Source: a virus
Taxonomy: Duplodnaviria > Caudoviricetes
Length of the DNA stretch: 64,000 nucleotides
Direction: 5' to 3' (one strand)
Virus record (IMG/VR): IMGVR_UViG_2767802041_000001
Coordinates: 21,082-85,081 of that record
Part shown: in pieces, positions 5,908 through 42,590 of the stretch
How positions within the stretch are numbered: the first letter of the stretch is position 1
How the letters are laid out: the number at the start of each line of letters is the position of its first letter
Notes under the pieces: model-generated
Database searches by the model: none
What the model was told of the DNA's origin: nothing
What the model saw: only the letters and a program-made list of their open reading frames with translations
Program-made: the position numbers and the translations under genes

Positions 5908-6593
5908 GCGTCGCCCCGGAACCTGACCAGTCGGGCCTGAACGACTGGTACAAGGCAGGCTGCTCCCGTGCCTGCGCCAACCAGCACACCCTCCAGTGGG
6001 GGCGCTGCGCCCACGCCGAAGTGCCCACCGACGAATCCTTCATCGTCGCCAAAACCGCCCTCGCGACCCCAGAGTCCTGGCCCTACATCTGCGGCACCCC
6101 GCGCCACACCAAGCTTCTGGACTGGCTGCGCACACACGATATCGAACCCAGCTGCGTCTCCTCCGACGATCCGCTCAGCCTCGCCACCGGATCTGACGGC
6201 ACCCGGCTGATCGAGTACACGCAGTACCTCGTCACTGCGGAAGGTCACCGGTACCTGGACCCGAAGGACCGCACGGTCGCTGCCAAGGAAACTCGTCGCG
6301 CACCTGTGAAGACCGACCCCCCGCGGCCGAAGCGCGCCGACATCACCACCCTCGCGCTCCTCCAAGCAATCCACGACCACGCCACACGCCCCGTCCCGCT
6401 CGGGAAGTACCGGTGGGAGATCCCGGGCGCCTGGTGGACGCTGTGCACGGTTTACCCGGAGAAGGTGGTCACCGCGGCGTACGTCCGGGAGGACGACCGC
6501 GGGCACCTGGAGTGCGGTGTCAGCCTCCGTACGAGCTGGCTCACCGACGAAGGGCGGGCCCGCCTTGTCGAACTGCGAGGCGCCCCGATCTGA
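5904..6593 (+). CDS. hypothetical protein
   Basis: ATGA overlap with the upstream gene; 229 aa. Confidence 0.65.
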   Translation: MSVAPEPDQSGLNDWYKAGCSRACANQHTLQWGRCAHAEVPTDESFIVAKTALATPESWPYICGTPRHTKLLDWLRTHDIEPSCVSSDDPLSLATGSDGTRLIEYTQYLVTAEGHRYLDPKDRTVAAKETRRAPVKTDPPRPKRADITTLALLQAIHDHATRPVPLGKYRWEIPGAWWTLCTVYPEKVVTAAYVREDDRGHLECGVSLRTSWLTDEGRARLVELRGAPI

Positions 6594-6608
6594 CCGGCAA
6601 GCTGCGCC

Positions 6609-7379
6609 CTACGGTGCGACACGTCCGTTGGTGTTGAACGCGGCGTGCGTGAGCGGCATCAGCCCCGCCCAGTGCGCCTCCATCAGCTCCCCCACCATCT
6701 CAATCTCCCGCTGAGGGAACGACGGGACCTTGGCATCGGGGTGGGTGGTGCGGAGCCCCAGGAAGTGCATCAGCGACCTGGCGTTGCACGTCGCGTACAT
6801 CGACGAGTACAGGCCGACCGGGAGGACCGACCGGGCGACCTCCCGGGCCACACCCGCGGCCAGCATGGCCTCGTAGGCGGCGTACGCCTCCCGGTACGCG
6901 ACCTCCATGTGCAGCCGCGTGAAGTCGTGCAGTCCAGCCGGGCCGTCCACGAACTCGTACCGCCCGGACTTTCCCTGCTGCACCAGCTTTCGGTCCTCGC
7001 CGGGCCAGTAGAACACCGGCTCCAGCTCCCGGTACCTCCCCGACTCCTCGTTGTACGACCAGCCGGCCCGGTGCCGCATGAACTCGCGGAACACGAAGAT
7101 CGGGGCGCTGATGAAGAACGTCATCGACGTGTGTTCCCAAGGTGATCCATGCCTGTCCCGCATGAGGTAGTTGATCAGCCCCCGGTCCCGGGCCGTCTGC
7201 GGGTGCTCCACCGCGGTGTGCTCCAGGTCGACCATGGCGCGGGCCGGGAAGCTCCGCTCACCCAAGGTGGACACCCGGGCCGCGAACAGCACGTCCGCGT
7301 CGGACGCGGACGCCTTCACCAGCTCCACGGTGACGTCGTCACGGAACTTCGGCTGGGCGGGCATGGGGGTGTCGGTCAC
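6609..7379 (-). CDS. thyX: flavin-dependent thymidylate synthase
   Basis: HGSPWEH, REFMRHRAGWSYNEESGRY (RHRx7S motif) and NARSLMHFLGLR; GGAG RBS plus GTG at 7379. Confidence 0.95.
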   Translation of the reverse strand: MTDTPMPAQPKFRDDVTVELVKASASDADVLFAARVSTLGERSFPARAMVDLEHTAVEHPQTARDRGLINYLMRDRHGSPWEHTSMTFFISAPIFVFREFMRHRAGWSYNEESGRYRELEPVFYWPGEDRKLVQQGKSGRYEFVDGPAGLHDFTRLHMEVAYREAYAAYEAMLAAGVAREVARSVLPVGLYSSMYATCNARSLMHFLGLRTTHPDAKVPSFPQREIEMVGELMEAHWAGLMPLTHAAFNTNGRVAP

Positions 7380-20775: not shown

Positions 20776-21183
20776 TCACAGAGCGTCAGGGGCGTCCCGG
20801 AGTACCTGCATCATGCCGGTCAGGTGCTGGTACTCGTCCGGGCTGAGGCGCTCCTCGGCGTGGGAGCTGGTGAGCATCAGCTGGAGGAAGTCGAGGGTGG
20901 TCCGGTACACGTGGGCGGCGGCCTCGTCGGTGAGGGTCGCCTGGTGCGCGATGAACCACGCTTCAACGTCCAGGGCGAGGCGCTGCTGGGGGCTGTCCGG
21001 GGCGGCGGTGCGTTCCGGCTGCGGGGGCTGGGGGGTGCGGTGGCCGCGGCTGGTGCGGGTGGTGCGCCGGCCGAAGGGGATGACTCGGGACCCGTCGCCA
21101 ACGGGGGGTGTGGCGGGGGCGGGGCCCGGGGGTCCGGGGGTGTGGTGGCCCGCGGGGCGTGCGGGCTCGACGGATGAGGGCAT
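20776..21183 (-). CDS. hypothetical protein
   Basis: GGAG RBS; MPSSVEPA; helical C-terminus. Confidence 0.5.
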   Translation of the reverse strand: MPSSVEPARPAGHHTPGPPGPAPATPPVGDGSRVIPFGRRTTRTSRGHRTPQPPQPERTAAPDSPQQRLALDVEAWFIAHQATLTDEAAAHVYRTTLDFLQLMLTSSHAEERLSPDEYQHLTGMMQVLRDAPDAL

Positions 21184-36559: not shown

Positions 36560-37663
36560 TCAGGTGAGTCCTGCGGAGGCATTGTCCTCCCAGCCGTCGT
36601 CGCGCTGCATGTACCCGAGCATGGAACGGCTGTGCCTGGCCCACCCGCCCTGGTCTGCGATGGCGACGGCGTCCTTGCCCTTGCGGCGCCCGGTGGACGC
36701 GAGGCCGGAGCGCAGGGAGTGGCCGGTCCAGAGGATGGGGATGCCGGCCCGCTGGGAGATGCGCTTGATGGCGCGGGTTACCCCGTCCGGCCCGAGCGGG
36801 CCGCGGATGTTGCCGTGCTGGTCGATCCAGTGGAACGCCGAGTCGGACGGCGACTCGTGGGGGCTGCCTCCGTGGGCGACGAGGGCCTGCCGGTATGCGA
36901 CCCAGGCTCGGACTGGGCAGATGACGGGGTCCTTCTGGTAAGGGATCTTCGCGTCGCGCACGGAGTGCTTCGTCTTGCCGGTGAGGACGGAGACGACGAG
37001 CCCCTTGGCCCGTACGGCGACGTCACCGTTCAGCAGGCCGGCGGGCTCGGAGGCGCGGGAGGCGAAGTGGAACCCGGTGAGAACGAGGGCGAGGTCGCGC
37101 AGGCCTTCAAGGCTGTCGTCGCAGGCTGCGGAGATGGCGTAGAGGCCGTCGGGGTCGGCGGCCACCGCCTGGCCGCGGCCGCGGCGCTCCTTTCCCTTGA
37201 GGAGCAGCACCTCCAGGCCGTCCAAGGCGATGCGCGCCTCGGCGGCGTCGTCCTTGGTGACGGTATGGCCGCCCCTGCGCAGGCCGACGATCGCGGCGTC
37301 CAGGTGCAACCGGGCGCTGGCCGGCGCGTACCCCAAGACCCCGCCCGGTCCTGGCCGTTGCCGTCCTTCGCGGAGTAGCCACCCGACGTAGGCGACCAGA
37401 GTGCCGCGCGATCCCTCGGTGAGAGGGAAGCCCTGCGCGGCGCAGAACCGCTCCCAAACGCGCCAGGACTTGGTGTAGGTGTCCTCGGTGTTCGCGGGCC
37501 GGATCTCGGCGGCGACGGCATCGGCGAAGTCCTCGGCCTGCGCGAGCCGGGCGGCCGCCTCGACGCCGTGGCGTGCCGCCCACTTCTCGACGAGCGCTGC
37601 ACGCTGGGCGACGGCCGGGCTCGGTAGCGGCCCCAGGGGAAGGCCATCCAGGGCGGTGCTCAC
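36560..37663 (-). CDS. Cre-like tyrosine recombinase/resolvase
   Basis: PANTEDTY..W..W..FC N-domain; RDLAL...ASRASE; KT; GHSLRSG; GGW...MLGY. Confidence 0.9.
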   Translation of the reverse strand: MSTALDGLPLGPLPSPAVAQRAALVEKWAARHGVEAAARLAQAEDFADAVAAEIRPANTEDTYTKSWRVWERFCAAQGFPLTEGSRGTLVAYVGWLLREGRQRPGPGGVLGYAPASARLHLDAAIVGLRRGGHTVTKDDAAEARIALDGLEVLLLKGKERRGRGQAVAADPDGLYAISAACDDSLEGLRDLALVLTGFHFASRASEPAGLLNGDVAVRAKGLVVSVLTGKTKHSVRDAKIPYQKDPVICPVRAWVAYRQALVAHGGSPHESPSDSAFHWIDQHGNIRGPLGPDGVTRAIKRISQRAGIPILWTGHSLRSGLASTGRRKGKDAVAIADQGGWARHSRSMLGYMQRDDGWEDNASAGLT

Positions 37664-37926
37664 TGCTTTGATCCCGGCTTCTCGTCCCAGTAGCCGTTGT
37701 CCACTCCGGTCTTCAAGTACCGCATGGCATGGTCGATGGAGGCCGAAGGGTCTAGGGCTGCATGAAGAATCTCGCTGAACTCCTGGTGGGCGGCGGCGTC
37801 TGCCGGGTTGAGCCCCCGTCGGCACTTGCGGTCCCAGTAGTCGCTCTCGACCATGATTCGGTCTTGGAGTTCAGCACGGGTCAGGCTGTCCAGGTCGGCA
37901 CGGGTGAGTCGCTTGAAGGCGGGCAT
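37660..37926 (-). CDS. hypothetical protein coupled to the recombinase
   Basis: AAGGAG RBS; GTGA overlap. Confidence 0.6.
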   Translation of the reverse strand: MPAFKRLTRADLDSLTRAELQDRIMVESDYWDRKCRRGLNPADAAAHQEFSEILHAALDPSASIDHAMRYLKTGVDNGYWDEKPGSKQ

Positions 37927-37988: not shown

Positions 37989-38153
37989 CAGCGTTCCGCC
38001 CGGCACGATCAAGCAGAGGTGGCCGCCACTTCTGCTCTGTACGCGATCCTAAGGATCAGGCCGGATACAGGCCGAGACGCTGGAGCAGCACCGTGACCCC
38101 GTAGATCACGACGGATCCCGCGACCTAGACCGCCACGGCGAGCACCCGGTATT

Positions 38154-38522
38154 TCACTGGAAGATTCGGACCACGCCTCGACGGTGCGCTTCCATCGCAT
38201 CCACGGTCATCTCGTGGACGGCGACGTTGATCCCGCCCGGCAGAGCAGCCGTTCCCGGGGAGACGGTCACATTGGGCATGTAAACGTTGACGCGCGACAG
38301 GCTCTCGACCAGTCCACCGAGCGGACCCGCCTTCAACCGGAGGAGTCGCTCGGCGCACTCGCGGCAGGACGGCATCCTGTTTTGCTTGCGGGTGCAGACG
38401 TACTGGCCGCCGCTTCGAGGGTGGGCGTGGTCACGGTGGCCGCAGCGCGGGCAATCACTGCCGTGCCGACGGGTCACCTGGCGCAGGGCGCGGTCAGCGT
38501 TCGGGTAGGGGCGGTGACTCAT
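38154..38522 (-). CDS. Zn-binding hypothetical protein
   Basis: AGGAGG RBS; MSHRPYPNADRAL; CPRC..H..C..CREC. Confidence 0.6.
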   Translation of the reverse strand: MSHRPYPNADRALRQVTRRHGSDCPRCGHRDHAHPRSGGQYVCTRKQNRMPSCRECAERLLRLKAGPLGGLVESLSRVNVYMPNVTVSPGTAALPGGINVAVHEMTVDAMEAHRRGVVRIFQ

Positions 38523-38781
38523 CGCGACCTCCTGGTGGGCGTACTGCCGATCGTAGCGACGAACCGGCGCAGGCTTCCCCCCGCTCGGTCACGGGTGCAG
38601 CAGCCGGGACAGTGGCGTCGGCCGGGCCCCGGGTTCGTGCGGGCGTTCCGGCGGGTCGGGTGGTTCGCCGGGGTGCGCGGTGTCGTCGGGGCCGGCCGCC
38701 TCGACCTCGCGCCGGTTCGGGTCGGTGCTCATGGTTCAAGGGTGCGCTTGGTGAGGCAAGTTGCTGCCCCTGGGTAGACAG

Positions 38782-38823
38782 TTCAACGCGTCCGTTGACT
38801 TTTCAATGGGTGCGTTGAATAAT
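38782..38823 (+). promoter_or_regulatory. promoter with overlapping imperfect inverted repeat
   Basis: TTGACT-17bp-AATAAT ending 6 nt before ATG 38830 (leaderless); TTCAACGC..TTGA/TCAA..GCGTTGAA symmetry. Confidence 0.65.
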
Positions 38824-38829
38824 GGGGTC

Positions 38830-39633
38830 ATGGAAGCCACCCGTGACACCATCGCCGCCACGCACCGTCGCATCGCCCGCGTCACCAACGCCCTGCTCGC
38901 GGAGCTCCCGCCGGAAGCCGTCAGCGGCACCATCGCCTTCGGCAAGCCCGCCGGTACCCGAGTGATGCTCAACGAGGACCTGACTGCCGCAGACATCCTC
39001 AACAAGTCCCGAATGCACGACGAAGGCGGCTTCGCGGACCCCCACTGGGTACTCCAGGGCGTCCACCCCGAGCTGTGGAACGGCCGCAAGCCCACCCGTG
39101 ACACTCAGGTCCGAACGACCGAGACCGATCAGACCATCCCCGCCCCTGCCCGCCAAGCTCTGTCTGCCGCAACCTCCTTCGGGGCGGCCTTGCTCAACTG
39201 GAGAAAGGCGTCTCCCGGAAGCCACCACCCTGATGAGGTTCGCGAGCGAGCCGCAGGCCGCGTTGCGCTGCACCTTGCCGACGCCAACGCAATCCTGGAC
39301 ATCCTGGAGCCCGAGTTGGGTCTGACGGAGCCTGCCGAGCAGGGCCCCGACCAGCTCCCCTCCGTAGCAGCCCTGGCCGCCCTGCCGCCGATCACTCGGG
39401 CTATCGCCGCCATCCGCGCCCGTGACACGGCAGACCGCAGCAGGACGGTTTACGCGGACGTACTGGGGGAGGCCCTGGCGGAGCTCAAGCAGACCCACGG
39501 ACGTGGCTGGACGACCCACGCGGCCAACGCTTTGGGTATGAAACCGTCGTCCGCCGATGAGGCGCTGCGCCGTTACCAGCGACGCTTGAACACGGCCCAT
39601 ACCCCGAACCAGAACCCCACCACCGAGCAGTGA
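38830..39633 (+). CDS. hypothetical protein with C-terminal HTH; first gene of the cassette operon
   Basis: GWTTHAANALGMKPSSADEALRRY; ends in TTEQ. Confidence 0.65.
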   Translation: MEATRDTIAATHRRIARVTNALLAELPPEAVSGTIAFGKPAGTRVMLNEDLTAADILNKSRMHDEGGFADPHWVLQGVHPELWNGRKPTRDTQVRTTETDQTIPAPARQALSAATSFGAALLNWRKASPGSHHPDEVRERAAGRVALHLADANAILDILEPELGLTEPAEQGPDQLPSVAALAALPPITRAIAAIRARDTADRSRTVYADVLGEALAELKQTHGRGWTTHAANALGMKPSSADEALRRYQRRLNTAHTPNQNPTTEQ

Positions 39634-39644
39634 GGACCACGACC

Positions 39645-39842
39645 ATGAACGACCGGCTCGAATCCCGGCCGGGAGGCCACCCGCACCTGGACACGATCCT
39701 GGCCCACGGCGAGAGCCCCCGCCACCTCCTGATGGACCACCTGTGCCGCCCGGCCCGCCTCGACCGGGCACTCACCGAGACCTACGCGCGGCAGCTCATC
39801 AACGCCGTGATCACCGAAGCGAACCCCCAGACCGGGCAGTGA
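39645..39842 (+). CDS. cassette gene 1 (65 aa)
   Basis: Starts at the ATG of repeat 1 and stops at the TGA of repeat 2. Confidence 0.75.
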   Translation: MNDRLESRPGGHPHLDTILAHGESPRHLLMDHLCRPARLDRALTETYARQLINAVITEANPQTGQ

Positions 39843-39853
39843 GGACCACGATC

Positions 39854-40114
39854 ATGGCGAAGGTAACCGCCCGCGACGCCCTGTCCTACTCGCTCAAGCG
39901 AGATCAAGCCCAGTTCGCCGAAGAGGCCGAGCGGCTGGCCAAGCAGGCCGCGCACATCGCCGCGAACCCGCCCACTGACGGCCGATCCGTTTCCGGCGAC
40001 ATCACCCGCCTCATGCAGGAGGCCGCCTTCCTCCTCAAGCGGGCCGTCACCATCGAAGCCGGGCTCGAAGCCGTCGGGCTGATGGGTGTCGAGACCGCCA
40101 CCACCGCACAGTGA
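39854..40114 (+). CDS. cassette gene 2 (86 aa, helical)
   Basis: MAKVTARDAL...TATTAQ between repeats 2 and 3. Confidence 0.8.
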   Translation: MAKVTARDALSYSLKRDQAQFAEEAERLAKQAAHIAANPPTDGRSVSGDITRLMQEAAFLLKRAVTIEAGLEAVGLMGVETATTAQ

Positions 40115-40125
40115 GGACCACGACC

Positions 40126-40287
40126 ATGGAGTACGAGCCGAGCGCGGACGAAGAGGTCTGCGGCGACACCTACGACCACGACGTCGTCATCGACCACGAG
40201 AGCAAGGACGGCATCCAGTGGCACTGCGCCCGACCCGGGTGCGGAGTTGAAGTCTGGGACCCGGCGCCCATCACCACCGAGCAGTGA
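40126..40287 (+). CDS. cassette gene 3 (53 aa, acidic, Cys/His)
   Basis: MEYEPSADEEVCGDTYDHD...HCARPGC...ITTEQ; absent from the ORF track. Confidence 0.75.
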   Translation: MEYEPSADEEVCGDTYDHDVVIDHESKDGIQWHCARPGCGVEVWDPAPITTEQ

Positions 40288-40298
40288 GGACCGCGACC

Positions 40299-40457
40299 AT
40301 GGCAACCTACATCCTTTGCATTGAGACCGACGGCGATGTCAATCCGGCCCAGCTCCGAGCCGACCTAGAGAACGCGGCCGAGGTAGGAGACCTCTCGGTC
40401 GGCCTGAAGGTCACCGCCGTAGCGGCAGTCGAGCCTTCGGCCACCACCGAGCAGTGA
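40299..40457 (+). CDS. cassette gene 4 (52 aa, acidic)
   Basis: MATYILCIETDGDVNPAQLRADLE...SATTEQ; absent from the ORF track. Confidence 0.75.
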   Translation: MATYILCIETDGDVNPAQLRADLENAAEVGDLSVGLKVTAVAAVEPSATTEQ

Positions 40458-40468
40458 GGAGTACGACT

Positions 40469-40642
40469 ATGACCCGCGAGGAGTACGAGGAGCAGTACCG
40501 CCGCCTAGAAGCCGACGCGGCGGACGCCAAGAAGACCCTGAACCGCGCTCGCGCCACGTACGACGGCATCTGCGAGGAACTGCGGAACCTGCGCATCGAC
40601 TGGACCGAGCAGCAGCGCCGTCAGACCACTACCGAGCAGTGA
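40469..40642 (+). CDS. cassette gene 5 (57 aa, coiled coil)
   Basis: MTREEYEEQYRRLE...QTTTEQ. Confidence 0.75.
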   Translation: MTREEYEEQYRRLEADAADAKKTLNRARATYDGICEELRNLRIDWTEQQRRQTTTEQ

Positions 40643-40855
40643 GGACCACGGCGGCGGAACACGACTACGTGCCGGAGGGCACGCCACAGTGCCGCAGGTG
40701 TGCAGCCACCGAGCAGTAGCCCGCCAGCGCGACGCCCCGACCATTAGAGGTGGCCGCGGGCGGCGCCGTGTCAGCCTACGTGCTGCTGCTTGTCCGTCGA
40801 GACGACCCGAGGACGACAGTCCAGAGGGGGCCGGCAAGGATGGAGAGACGTGCAA

Positions 40856-40901
40856 GATCCGGTTATTTAAGTCGCAAAACTATAGGACAACACCGCAGGT
40901 C
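40856..40901 (+). repeat. 46-bp repeat, copy 2
   Basis: GATCCGGTTATTTAAGTCGCAAAACTATAGGACAACACCGCAGGTC. Confidence 0.9.
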
Positions 40902-40923
40902 AAAAGCCTGGACGCCAGACTTG

Positions 40924-42210
40924 TCATGCCACCCTCGTCAACCTGAGCCACGACCCGGCACGCAACACCGTTGCCGTAGCCATCGCCGCGTTCTGCGCCC
41001 ACTGCACAGTGATCGCCCCGGACGCACCCGCAGTGATCGTGCCAAGCGGAGTAACGATCAGCCCGGCAGCAGTGATGCCGACCCCAATAGCCACACCAGG
41101 GTCGTACCGAGTCAGCCGCAACGACCCCGTGCCGTCCGAAACGCCCAGCGTGATCCCGGCCGGAGCCCAATGCCCAGTAGAGCCGGGCGGCGCAGACAGA
41201 GTCAGCAGCAGGTCGCCCGCCGGGTCCCCCGAGACAACCAGGCACGCGTCTATGGCGTACCGGCCGCCAGCGGTAACGGGGAGGGTGAGGTGGTCGTCGT
41301 CCTGGAGGACGGTAGACGAGGTGACGGACTCGTCAGCGGCCTTGTCGACCGTGCGGATGACGCCGACGACGTCACCTGTCGGCGGGACGCCAGCAGGGCC
41401 CTGCGGTCCTTGCGGCCCGGTAGCTCCCGTATCGCCCTTCGGGCCGGCGGGTCCCGTTGCACCAGTGGCTCCAGTGTCGCCCTTGGGGCCGGCGGGTCCC
41501 GTTGCACCAGTGGCTCCAGTGTCGCCCTTGGGGCCGGCCGGGCCGACCGCTCCCGTGGCCCCGGCCGCACCGGTAGCGCCGGTGTCGCCCTTCGGCCCGG
41601 CGGGGCCTTGAGGGCCTGTGTCTCCCGTGTCGCCCTTGGCTCCATCCGGGCCGGTTGCACCGGTTGCTCCGGTGGGTCCGGGGTCTCCCTGCGGGCCTGG
41701 CACCCCCTGCGGGCCCTCCGGCCCGGTCGCCCCGTCGGCTCCCGGCGCCCCATCGGCTCCGGCAGCGCCCGGGTGGCCTTGTGGGCCAGGGTCGCCTGCC
41801 GGGCCTGTCGCGCCGGGCGGTCCTGCTGGGCCCTCGGGGCCCGGCACGTACACGATGGTGCTACCCCCGGTCGGGGCCTCCCCCAGATCGACCCGCAGAT
41901 CCCCCACCCAGTGCGGGCCGCCGGTCTCCGGCACCAGGATGTACGTCATCACCGGCATGCCGTCGTACGAGCGGCCCTCCATCACCGCCCACACCGTGTC
42001 CCCGGCGTCCGCCTGGACCTGCGCGTTCGGGATCAGGTCCGCGGACCAGGTGCCGTCCTCCTGCGGCTTCACCAGGACGGGGCGGACGACCTCGGCCTCT
42101 TCCCCGCCGGCGTACCCGATCGCCCGGGCGCCGGTGACGTCGACCAGCTCGATCTCGATCCGGGTCTGCGACGGCACCCCGCCGAACAGCTTGCCCGTGA
42201 CGGTGGCCAT
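40924..42210 (-). CDS. collagen-like tail fibre/minor structural protein
   Basis: Long Gly-X-Y run ([15 protein letters not shown]); C-terminal ...[14 protein letters not shown]. Confidence 0.85.
41441..41530. repeat. two identical 45-bp tandem units in the collagen region
   Basis: 41441-41485 is identical to 41486-41530. Confidence 0.85.
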
Positions 42211-42590
42211 CAGATGCTCCAGGTGATGAGGTCGGTGGGCACCGAAACGGGCTCCTGGCCACACGTGCACGCACGTAGCCGCTGATTCGCCGAGCGCACC
42301 ACCATCAGTGCGGACCGGAGTTTCTCCTCCCGGTCGTCCCGCTCGGACCGGAGCTTGTCGACGTCGTGCTTGAGCTGCCCGATCTCCTCGCGTAGCCCGT
42401 TGATCTGCGCCTGCAAGGCGTCCCGTATCTCCTTGAACGCCTCACGGTCCTGCTGCCGCTCACTCGCCGCGTTCTGCGGCGCCGCCTGTTCACGGGCCGC
42501 GATCCGCGAGTTCCGCGACGCGTACAGGGTTCCCGCGAGGCTGATGAGGGCGATTGCTGCCGTGCCAACGGCGGTCCACGCGTTACCCAT
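42210..42590 (-). CDS. TM plus coiled-coil lysis-cassette protein
   Basis: N-terminal TM helix, heptads, position after holin. Confidence 0.7.

Follow-up and report, generated by a model that had tools for sequence, protein, structure and literature searches.

The stretch of DNA considered here, referred to as the window, comprises 64,000 nucleotides (nt), positions 21,082 to 85,081, of the 85,081-nt virus record IMGVR_UViG_2767802041_000001. The replicon is a ZL12-like Streptomyces plasmid-prophage, and ZL12, a Streptomyces plasmid-phage, was its sole relative among deposited phages. The window carries an array of six genes, g1 to g6, which are connected to one another by copies of a 29-nt sequence, hereafter called the joint. 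On balance the array is probably a variable, moron-like operon in which the joint acts as an adaptor for coupled translation and also as a short boundary sequence that guides the exchange of gene cassettes by homologous recombination. The joint is the sole homology between unrelated neighbors and is the site at which homology breaks off; therefore it most likely guides cassette exchange. At least 28 further records of Streptomyces phages or plasmids contained the same joint, which there connects different small genes.

The consensus of the joint, ACCACCGAGCAGTGAGGACCACGACCATG, can be divided into ACCACCGAGCAG-TGA-GGACCACGACC-ATG. A search of the window with this 29-mer gave matches at joints R1 (no mismatches), R3 (two), R4 (one) and R5 (three) and none in 100 shuffled sequences, and two weaker copies, R2 and R6, each agreed with the consensus at 24 of 29 positions (Table 1). 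A repeat search returned a single family of six copies with spacings of 209, 272, 173, 170 and 185 nt, all within 1.1 kb, and outside the array no copy matching at 20 or more of the 29 positions was found in the whole 85,081-nt record. An earlier note on this DNA had described these six copies with their coordinates and periods, and had placed each cassette behind a stop, Shine-Dalgarno (SD) and ATG adaptor; both descriptions were confirmed, and five genes of 52–86 amino acids (aa) fit exactly between the copies. In each of the first five copies, four final codons and a TGA close one gene, and an 11-nt spacer beginning with GGA separates this stop from the ATG that opens the following gene. 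The TGA shares bases with a GAGG, from which the ATG is 9 nt away; of the window copies, the interrupted sixth alone departs from this layout. All copies in the window lie on the same strand and are followed by unrelated genes, with ATG as the start codon in five of five (ATG was included in the search pattern, and the preference for it is independently shown for the window alone). The genes between the copies were unrelated by BLASTP at E ≤ 1e-3, with no pair found among the window's own genes.

Dyad symmetry was not detected in the joint, none of the 25 longest inverted-repeat pairs (of 77) having both arms inside one joint. The 81-nt joint regions folded no better than shuffled sequences, five of the six being less stable (z +1.0 to +2.6), and no Rfam family was matched at E ≤ 1 across positions 38000–41200. 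GAGG is complementary to the CCUC of the anti-SD sequence. The overlap of GAGG with the stop, the fixed spacing and the open RNA make translational coupling possible. The 3' half of the joint, with its stop overlapping GAGG, its fixed 9-nt gap to the ATG and its unstructured RNA, may thus be regarded as an expression adaptor at which a ribosome ending one gene could start the next.

Table 1. Features of the array and its surroundings, in window coordinates. ORF, open reading frame; CDS, coding sequence; pI, isoelectric point.
Feature	Position	Strand	Remarks
Tyrosine recombinase gene	36560..37825	-	Longest ORF; annotated start later (367 aa); ~1 kb upstream of array, divergent
Small divergent ORF, 47 aa	38589..38732	-	Conserved left flank of array formed by its start region (CATGGTTCAAGGGTGCGC, 38730-38747); CDS in NZ_CP070261.1 annotation
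Promoter-like site TTGACT-17-AATAAT	38795..38823	+	10/12 consensus positions; only site in region vs 0.2 expected
Lead gene g1, 267 aa	38830..39633	+	All-helical (model); ends TTEQ; ATG at 38830
Joint R1	39619..39647	+	ACCACCGAGCAG TGA GGACCACGACC ATG, 29/29
Cassette g2, 65 aa	39645..39842	+	Family D/F9; ends QTGQ
Joint R2	39828..39856	+	24/29
Cassette g3, 86 aa	39854..40114	+	Family B/F2; ends TTAQ; predicted helical hairpin, disordered tail
Joint R3	40100..40128	+	27/29
Cassette g4, 53 aa	40126..40287	+	Family E/F5; pI 4.05; ends TTEQ
Joint R4	40273..40301	+	28/29
Cassette g5, 52 aa	40299..40457	+	pI 4.05; ends TTEQ
Joint R5	40443..40471	+	26/29
Cassette g6, 57 aa	40469..40642	+	Family F6; ends TTEQ
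Joint R6	40628..40651	+	Interrupted after GGACCACG; without ATG
Family C cassette, 3' remnant	40653..40719	+	5' ~95 nt gone, last ~65 nt left; compared with complete L039 g5 (alignment)
Terminal half joint GCCACCGAGCAGTAG	40705..40719	+	Last 15 nt of family C remnant; GCCACCGAGCAG-TAG
Conserved array end TAG CCCGCCAGCGCGAC with G+C-rich hairpin	40717..40766	+	Hairpin ~40729-40766
Right-flank motif GTCGCAAAACTATAGGACAA	40871..40890	+	Between array terminator and tail-fiber gene; ≤4 mismatches in 6/15 other loci first examined

A promoter in front of the array had been proposed in the earlier note, and the site was found to be the sole promoter-like match in the region. Six nt separate its -10 hexamer from the ATG of g1, and g1 is therefore probably leaderless; TAnnnT was present 6–7 nt before the first ATG in 11 of 15 related arrays. 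The first gene would thus be driven by a sigma-70-type promoter, probably without a leader. At the other end of the array a last repeat lacking an ATG and a degenerate half copy near 40706 had also been reported, and both were found. The half copy closes the family C remnant, in which a 16-codon ORF with a GTG start (40669–40719) ends in ATEQ. The end motif and the hairpin stood behind the final gene of the window's array and of seven of nine other arrays examined. The hairpin is probably a terminator without a U-run; a consensus terminator scan did not list it at 40729–40766. At 40643–40660 a deletion of ~95 nt destroyed the last joint, by which GGACCACG was fused to the interior of the family C cassette; the event was illegitimate and not homologous, and took place within the array.

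The distribution of the joint was followed in viral, bacterial and plasmid sequences. Viral contigs, searched with a 15-nt piece of the joint, yielded 32 stretches, of which 15 lay in a full joint context and 17 were unrelated chance matches; the 20-nt 3' part, at ≤3 mismatches, was found in 14 of the 15 joint-context records, always on one strand and clustered. When one genome per species was scanned with the 3' 18-mer, 77 stretches were obtained. A TTEQ-like 5' half, agreeing at 8 or more of 11 nt, accompanied 13 of these, every one from Streptomyces, while the remaining 64 (five from Streptomyces) matched the 5' half at 7 of 11 nt or fewer and were chance matches. From this split it follows that the two halves of the joint belong together and that the element is specific to the Streptomyces phage-plasmid group. 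Thirteen Streptomyces plasmid records shared parts of the locus, and 11-nt gaps between annotated genes were seen there too. A 36-nt joint query against 50,697 deposited phage genomes gave chance-level matches only; the one in Streptomyces phage SV1 was rejected as an unrelated overlapping stop and start. ZL12 was without a full copy of the joint.

Sixteen arrays were curated by hand and 31 loci (designated here by L numbers) were processed automatically, 29 of them having joints by the criteria set. The 29 arrays contained 97 genes, 46 joints of the kind described above (R joints) and 12 of a second, KEN type. Nineteen gene families occurred in at least two loci and 36 genes were singletons. 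More than one left neighbor was recorded for 17 of the 19 families and more than one right neighbor for 16, the family and neighbor counts being approximate because some starts in the automatic gene calls were wrong. The earlier note had described the array as modular, and the comparison of cassette content and order in relatives bore this out, with the same joint connecting other genes in other orders and with homology breakpoints in the joints. Cassettes g2, g3, g4 and g6 recurred elsewhere beside other neighbors; g1 and g5 did not. When g2, g3 and g4 were aligned with their homologues at the nucleotide level, homology started at ..CCATG and stopped just past the ATG of the next joint.

Individual rearrangements were also traced. 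A contig of run X8, from another strain, carried a KEN-type joint, g2 (seven differences), 264 nt of different sequence and the array end. ZL12 was collinear with L039 up to ACCGAGCAGT and there switched to the array end of L039, and therefore a three-gene block was gained or lost between two TTEQ-coding repeats. Low-depth contigs of run X6 broke near the repeats, and among the raw reads of run X10 none fell on the stretch. Near-identical relatives differing in the array alone were not present among the loci fetched, whose flanks were 65–91% identical.

The second joint type, AAGGAGAnC-TGA-CC-ATG, was observed in the same arrays (L006 4453–4470; L039, L042, L043, L044, L046, L047, L086 and L095). 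Its SD sequence lies inside the last codons, by which the products receive KEN or KES tails, and hybrid tails such as TTKES exist. By eye, the R and KEN-type joints have ACCACC, GAG, TGA and GACCATG in common, and the R joint looks like the KEN type with nine bases added after the stop. Some relatives had extra mini-arrays elsewhere in the replicon (L009 at ~6400–6900, record G003, ~15.7 kb; L056 and L121, contig NZ_JBFAWU010000028.1); these contain an R-like joint, in one case with a spacer of 10 nt, and an end motif and hairpin resembling those described above.

The endings of the products were examined in 51 distinct junction contexts, picked by the 3' 17-mer alone. TTEQ was exact in 25 of the 51, and most of the others were one-base variants. 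The threonine codons of the tail (n = 77) were ACC in 75 cases, ACT in two and ACG in none, compared with 63% ACC and 25% ACG inside the array genes (P = 3e-13). Of 41 variant tail codons, 37 were non-synonymous and four synonymous. Families A and G ended in HKEN/KES or in TTEQ according to the type of joint that followed them, and the 54 homologues of g3 had about 30 different tails. Conservation in the g3 family was 0.83, 0.69, 0.74 and 0.48 in the four tail columns and 0.83 in the body. The two homologues of g1 did not end in TTEQ, and the tail of the g3 model is predicted to be disordered. TTEQ is, on this evidence, best read as the peptide product of the joint's 5' half, with the constraint acting on DNA or RNA and not on the peptide; the fixed ACC, the non-synonymous variants, the joint-dependent tails, the tails of the g1 and g3 homologues and the disordered tail of g3 all argue that it is not a conserved peptide. 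A role of TTEQ in targeting or stability had been suggested in the earlier note, and the frozen codons, the mostly non-synonymous variants and the families with differing tails speak against it. That TTEQ is a functional C-terminal peptide, whether for targeting, secretion or stability, would agree with its recurrence within one residue in most contexts and with the predicted exposure of the g3 tail, yet very little credence can be given to a peptide signal whose variants alter the amino acid in 37 of 41 cases, which is replaced by KEN or KES within the same families, which in the g3 family is no better kept than the body (48% at the last residue), and which the homologues of g1 lack.

Constraint on the joint was estimated from 31 homologous cassette pairs, in which identity was 64.5% at third codon positions, 78.8% in the 12-nt tail and 91.8% in the next 17 nt, the last figure being inflated because joints were selected by likeness to the consensus. 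Relatives with flanks 65–75% identical had joints 93–100% identical, and the joint was often the only matching DNA in the array. Diverged joints retained the stop, GGA or GGG, and an ATG 11 nt past the stop, in front of intact genes. The consensus is kept throughout the gene pool, and selection is therefore called for. Under the reading preferred here, homologous recombination within the joint would exchange, insert or remove entire cassettes, leaving them in frame and ready to be expressed, and cassettes bearing a consensus joint could spread between arrays, which would help to keep the joint uniform.

Several observations weigh against this reading. Recombination events at the joints were not observed directly, breakpoints at gene borders are also expected from illegitimate recombination followed by selection, and the junction contexts are non-independent samples. 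Mismatches between joints averaged 3.50 within genomes and 3.28 between genomes (permutation P = 0.76); joints are therefore as alike between genomes as within them, and there is no sign of homogenization in situ. Joints nearly identical amid 65–75% divergence require purifying selection, which recognition by a trans-acting factor would explain as well or better. R joints occurred at two or three loci in some relatives, and the joint is thus not strictly a one-locus device. As for the machinery, a Sak-like single-strand annealing protein (SSAP) had been named in the earlier note as a possible driver, but none of four Pfam models (Rad52, Sak, RecT and ERF) was matched in the 85-kb record. Nor was an SSAP named in the annotation of the deposited Streptomyces plasmid NZ_CP070261.1 (hit H6), which carries a 2,101-nt stretch identical to part of the window and whose annotation was inspected over 72,025 of its 85,024 bases.

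The alternative closest to these objections, which we consider rather unlikely, is that the joint is a cis-acting expression signal alone, similar to the start-associated sequences (SAS) of other phages and conserved solely for its recognition by the ribosome or by a host or phage factor, and that shuffling results from illegitimate recombination and selection, homology having no role. The joint does lie at the ribosome-binding site, is asymmetric and one-way, and stands before the ATG of unrelated genes, as described for SAS in the available part of PMC3203893. It is far better conserved than neighboring DNA, which points to selection on the sequence itself; the absence of homogenization within genomes is in agreement, and the non-homologous loss of the last joint in the window indicates that illegitimate events occur in the array. 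A ribosome-binding site, however, needs only the GAGG core and its spacing. An expression signal leaves unexplained the half joint at the array end, which is without a ribosome-binding site or ATG, and the gain or loss of a gene block bounded by TTEQ-coding 12-mers, and a spacer of 11 nt throughout 46 joints is unlike the scattered joints that illegitimate recombination leaves. A bolder form of the preferred reading, possible but doubtful, is a homology-guided cassette system, an "integron without an integrase", with the joint as universal expression adaptor and recombination site. If it were correct, the small genes would be selfish, portable cassettes moving among Streptomyces plasmid-phages and always expressed on arrival, the joint would stay uniform since cassettes that keep it spread, and the cargo would be host-interaction genes of fast turnover, for example for counter-defense or exclusion.

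Action of the nearby tyrosine recombinase at the repeats, the other driver named in the earlier note, would amount to an integron-like system in which that enzyme inserts and excises cassettes. The layout is suggestive, since the recombinase gene is divergent from a promoter that is followed by promoterless, one-way cassettes, each with a repeat, and ZL12 has the same recombinase-array neighborhood. The relatives are all syntenic, however, so the shared neighborhood is not independent evidence, and three other genes in the NZ_CP070261.1 annotation separate the recombinase from the array. The protein matched PF00589 at 27.9 bits (cut-off 27.1) and a PHROG integrase and was annotated as a tyrosine-type recombinase in NZ_CP070261.1. 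Its best NCBIfam matches were far below their cut-offs (17.9 bits against 220 for an XerA/integron-type model, and 15.3 against 335), and no integron-integrase model was matched at E ≤ 0.01. attC sites are imperfect inverted repeats that fold as single strands; the joint, unlike them, has neither an inverted repeat nor a stable single-strand fold. On a ParA/ParB plasmid-prophage the recombinase would more plausibly resolve multimers or integrate the element, and the integron-like system is regarded as barely credible. Stoperators are asymmetric repeats at gene borders, oriented with transcription, distributed genome-wide and bound by the phage repressor, and operator-like repeats of this kind might allow a repressor to block transcription of the array in the lysogen. 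The sites in the window are indeed asymmetric, placed at stop/start borders and all aligned with transcription, in an operon adjoining a divergent, regulatory-looking region. They are nevertheless limited to one operon in the window's genome, are shared by arrays with different lead genes (g1, family A or family L) and have no full copy in ZL12, and a DNA-binding domain in g1 was not confirmed; a repressor-bound role is accordingly considered quite improbable.

Comparison with known systems was made from three articles, each available in part. SAS in Cluster K mycobacteriophages are 13 bp long and occur in 11–19 copies over the non-structural half of the genome (PMC3203893), and an SAS-like motif and other intergenic repeats are reported for Microbacterium phages, including Cluster EF (PMC7302621). 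As in the available text of these two articles (PMC3203893, PMC7302621), the joint is a short, asymmetric and well-conserved motif at the ribosome site before the ATG, arranged one way in front of unrelated genes, restricted to one phage group and in some cases overlapping the stop codon upstream. It differs in being 29 nt long and in reaching 12 nt into the upstream gene, so that it dictates the protein tail, and its stop is always 11 nt from the ATG. The joint is also confined to one operon in the window's genome, with genes shuffled between relatives, whereas SAS are spread over the genome. Its sequence differs from the Cluster K consensus, the AGGA(C/G)C-like core alone resembling the K and EF consensus sequences as far as these are given in the parts available.

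The idea of boundary sequences belongs to the modular theory of phage evolution and reportedly goes back to Susskind and Botstein and the lambdoid phages. In the available part of PMC3029335, boundary (linker) sequences at the borders of exchangeable modules are said to be able to reassort those modules by homologous recombination, were not found at most mosaic borders, and are illustrated by one case of ~50 bp. Their absence from most mosaic borders made illegitimate recombination the default explanation (PMC3029335, same part). The joint resembles a boundary sequence in that the same short sequence borders unrelated modules, with homology breakpoints inside it. It differs in being explicit, in occurring in up to six tandem copies, in doubling as an expression signal and in marking 46 borders in 29 arrays, the recombination itself being presumed. 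The operon thus represents an unusually clean explicit boundary sequence, tandem, located at homology breakpoints and present in about thirty replicons, which makes the question of module reassortment testable in a genetically tractable host.

With integrons the array has in common a promoter followed by promoterless, one-way, repeat-bounded cassettes, content that varies among relatives and a tyrosine recombinase nearby; it differs in lacking attI, an integron-type integrase signature and any palindrome or fold of the attC type, and in that the repeat belongs to the coding and translation signals instead of standing apart as a recombination site. Cluster A mycobacteriophages have stoperators, which are mentioned in the available parts of PMC3203893 and PMC3029335; the repeats of the window are like them in asymmetry, in position at gene borders and in orientation with transcription, and differ in being local to one operon. 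Morons are accessory genes of phages that bring a promoter and a terminator of their own (PMC3029335, in part). The array is moron-like in that it sits between conserved phage genes with a promoter-like site and a terminal hairpin to itself, whose promoter and terminator function is presumed, and in that its content varies among relatives; it differs in comprising more than one gene, with up to seven or more cassettes chained by a standard adaptor. In literature on pZL12 and on start-associated and boundary sequences, no title or abstract described the joint or the array, the original description of pZL12 lying outside this coverage. A joint maintained as DNA can impose a common C-terminal tail on unrelated proteins, which calls for caution in reading recurrent termini as signals, and a standard joint could serve as a plug-and-play adaptor for polycistronic constructs in Streptomyces.

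The genes themselves were compared with the other arrays and with protein families. The lead gene g1 is rare, the two homologues mentioned above being all that were found. Cassette g2 is 94% identical to L039 g4, whose neighbors differ, and it is also the gene behind the KEN-type joint in run X8. The 54 homologues of g3 are from Streptomyces, and its neighbors differ in L040, L042, L044 and L095. Homologues of g4 were found in L051 (77 aa, ending TTEK) and L095, and those of g6 in L083 and L095 beside different neighbors; g5 had no homologue in the 28 other arrays. Nothing above threshold was found for g1–g6 or family A in Pfam, PHROGs, NCBIfam or PADLOC, the last of which holds defense and not anti-defense models, and sub-threshold coiled-coil or DUF6933 matches were the sole family-search hits. 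The earlier note had called the cargo small and often acidic. The cassettes are small and g4 and g5 are acidic, but the other three have pI values of 5.1–6.5.

Structure models were obtained for g1 and g3. The AlphaFold2 (AF2) model of g3 had a predicted local distance difference test (pLDDT) score of 87, with residues 84–86 below 50, and gave no match at E ≤ 0.001 in a viral structure library. The model of g1 was all-helical (pLDDT 73.5) and without a match in the PDB, the best Foldseek E value being 0.39 and the best VIA-align wide Z score 7.7, to generic helical bundles. Atlas leads from g1 to helix-turn-helix (HTH) families were weak (score 0.82, below the level that counts). Neither the HTH identity of g1 nor the acr/aca identity of the array, both raised in the earlier note, was confirmed, and an anti-defense role of the cargo would be a guess.

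Family A (~100 aa) is the usual lead gene, with 14 members in the 29 arrays (e.g. L006 4151–4465; L044 4040–4354), and g1 replaces it in the window. Its members have an N-terminal CxCGCG and a C-terminal C-x3-C-x12-H-x3-H that looks like a zinc finger. A recurrent cassette family in related arrays (L133 3499–3843; L134 2177–2512) is annotated as DUF6354, and a small gene on the opposite strand just past the array as DUF6207.

The array lies between a tyrosine-recombinase region on one side and tail-fiber and lysis genes, on the opposite strand, on the other. The left-flank motif CATGGTTCAAGGGTGCGC was exact in four of 15 other loci (L006, L040, L047 and L054) and present with ≤4 mismatches in further loci. 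Flanks as in the window with different content between them were found in ZL12, L040, L044 and L047. In ZL12 the site of the array holds two genes only, the second of which ends in ATTEQ and abuts the same end motif.

In NZ_CP070261.1 the same six array genes had been called independently, each as a "hypothetical protein". The inspected part of its annotation includes ParA/ParB, terminase, capsid, tail and lysis genes, a mixture that reflects a plasmid-prophage lifestyle of the ZL12 kind. Also encoded there are a type IV coupling-protein-like gene, a DNA cytosine methyltransferase, a WhiB-family regulator and thyX. The tail-fiber-like gene beyond the array (40924–42270, minus strand) contains collagen-like Gly-X-Y repeats at 41372–41728; the repeat family has 10 copies at spacings of 9, 36 and 45 nt, and the gene is annotated as a "collagen-like protein" in NZ_CP070261.1.

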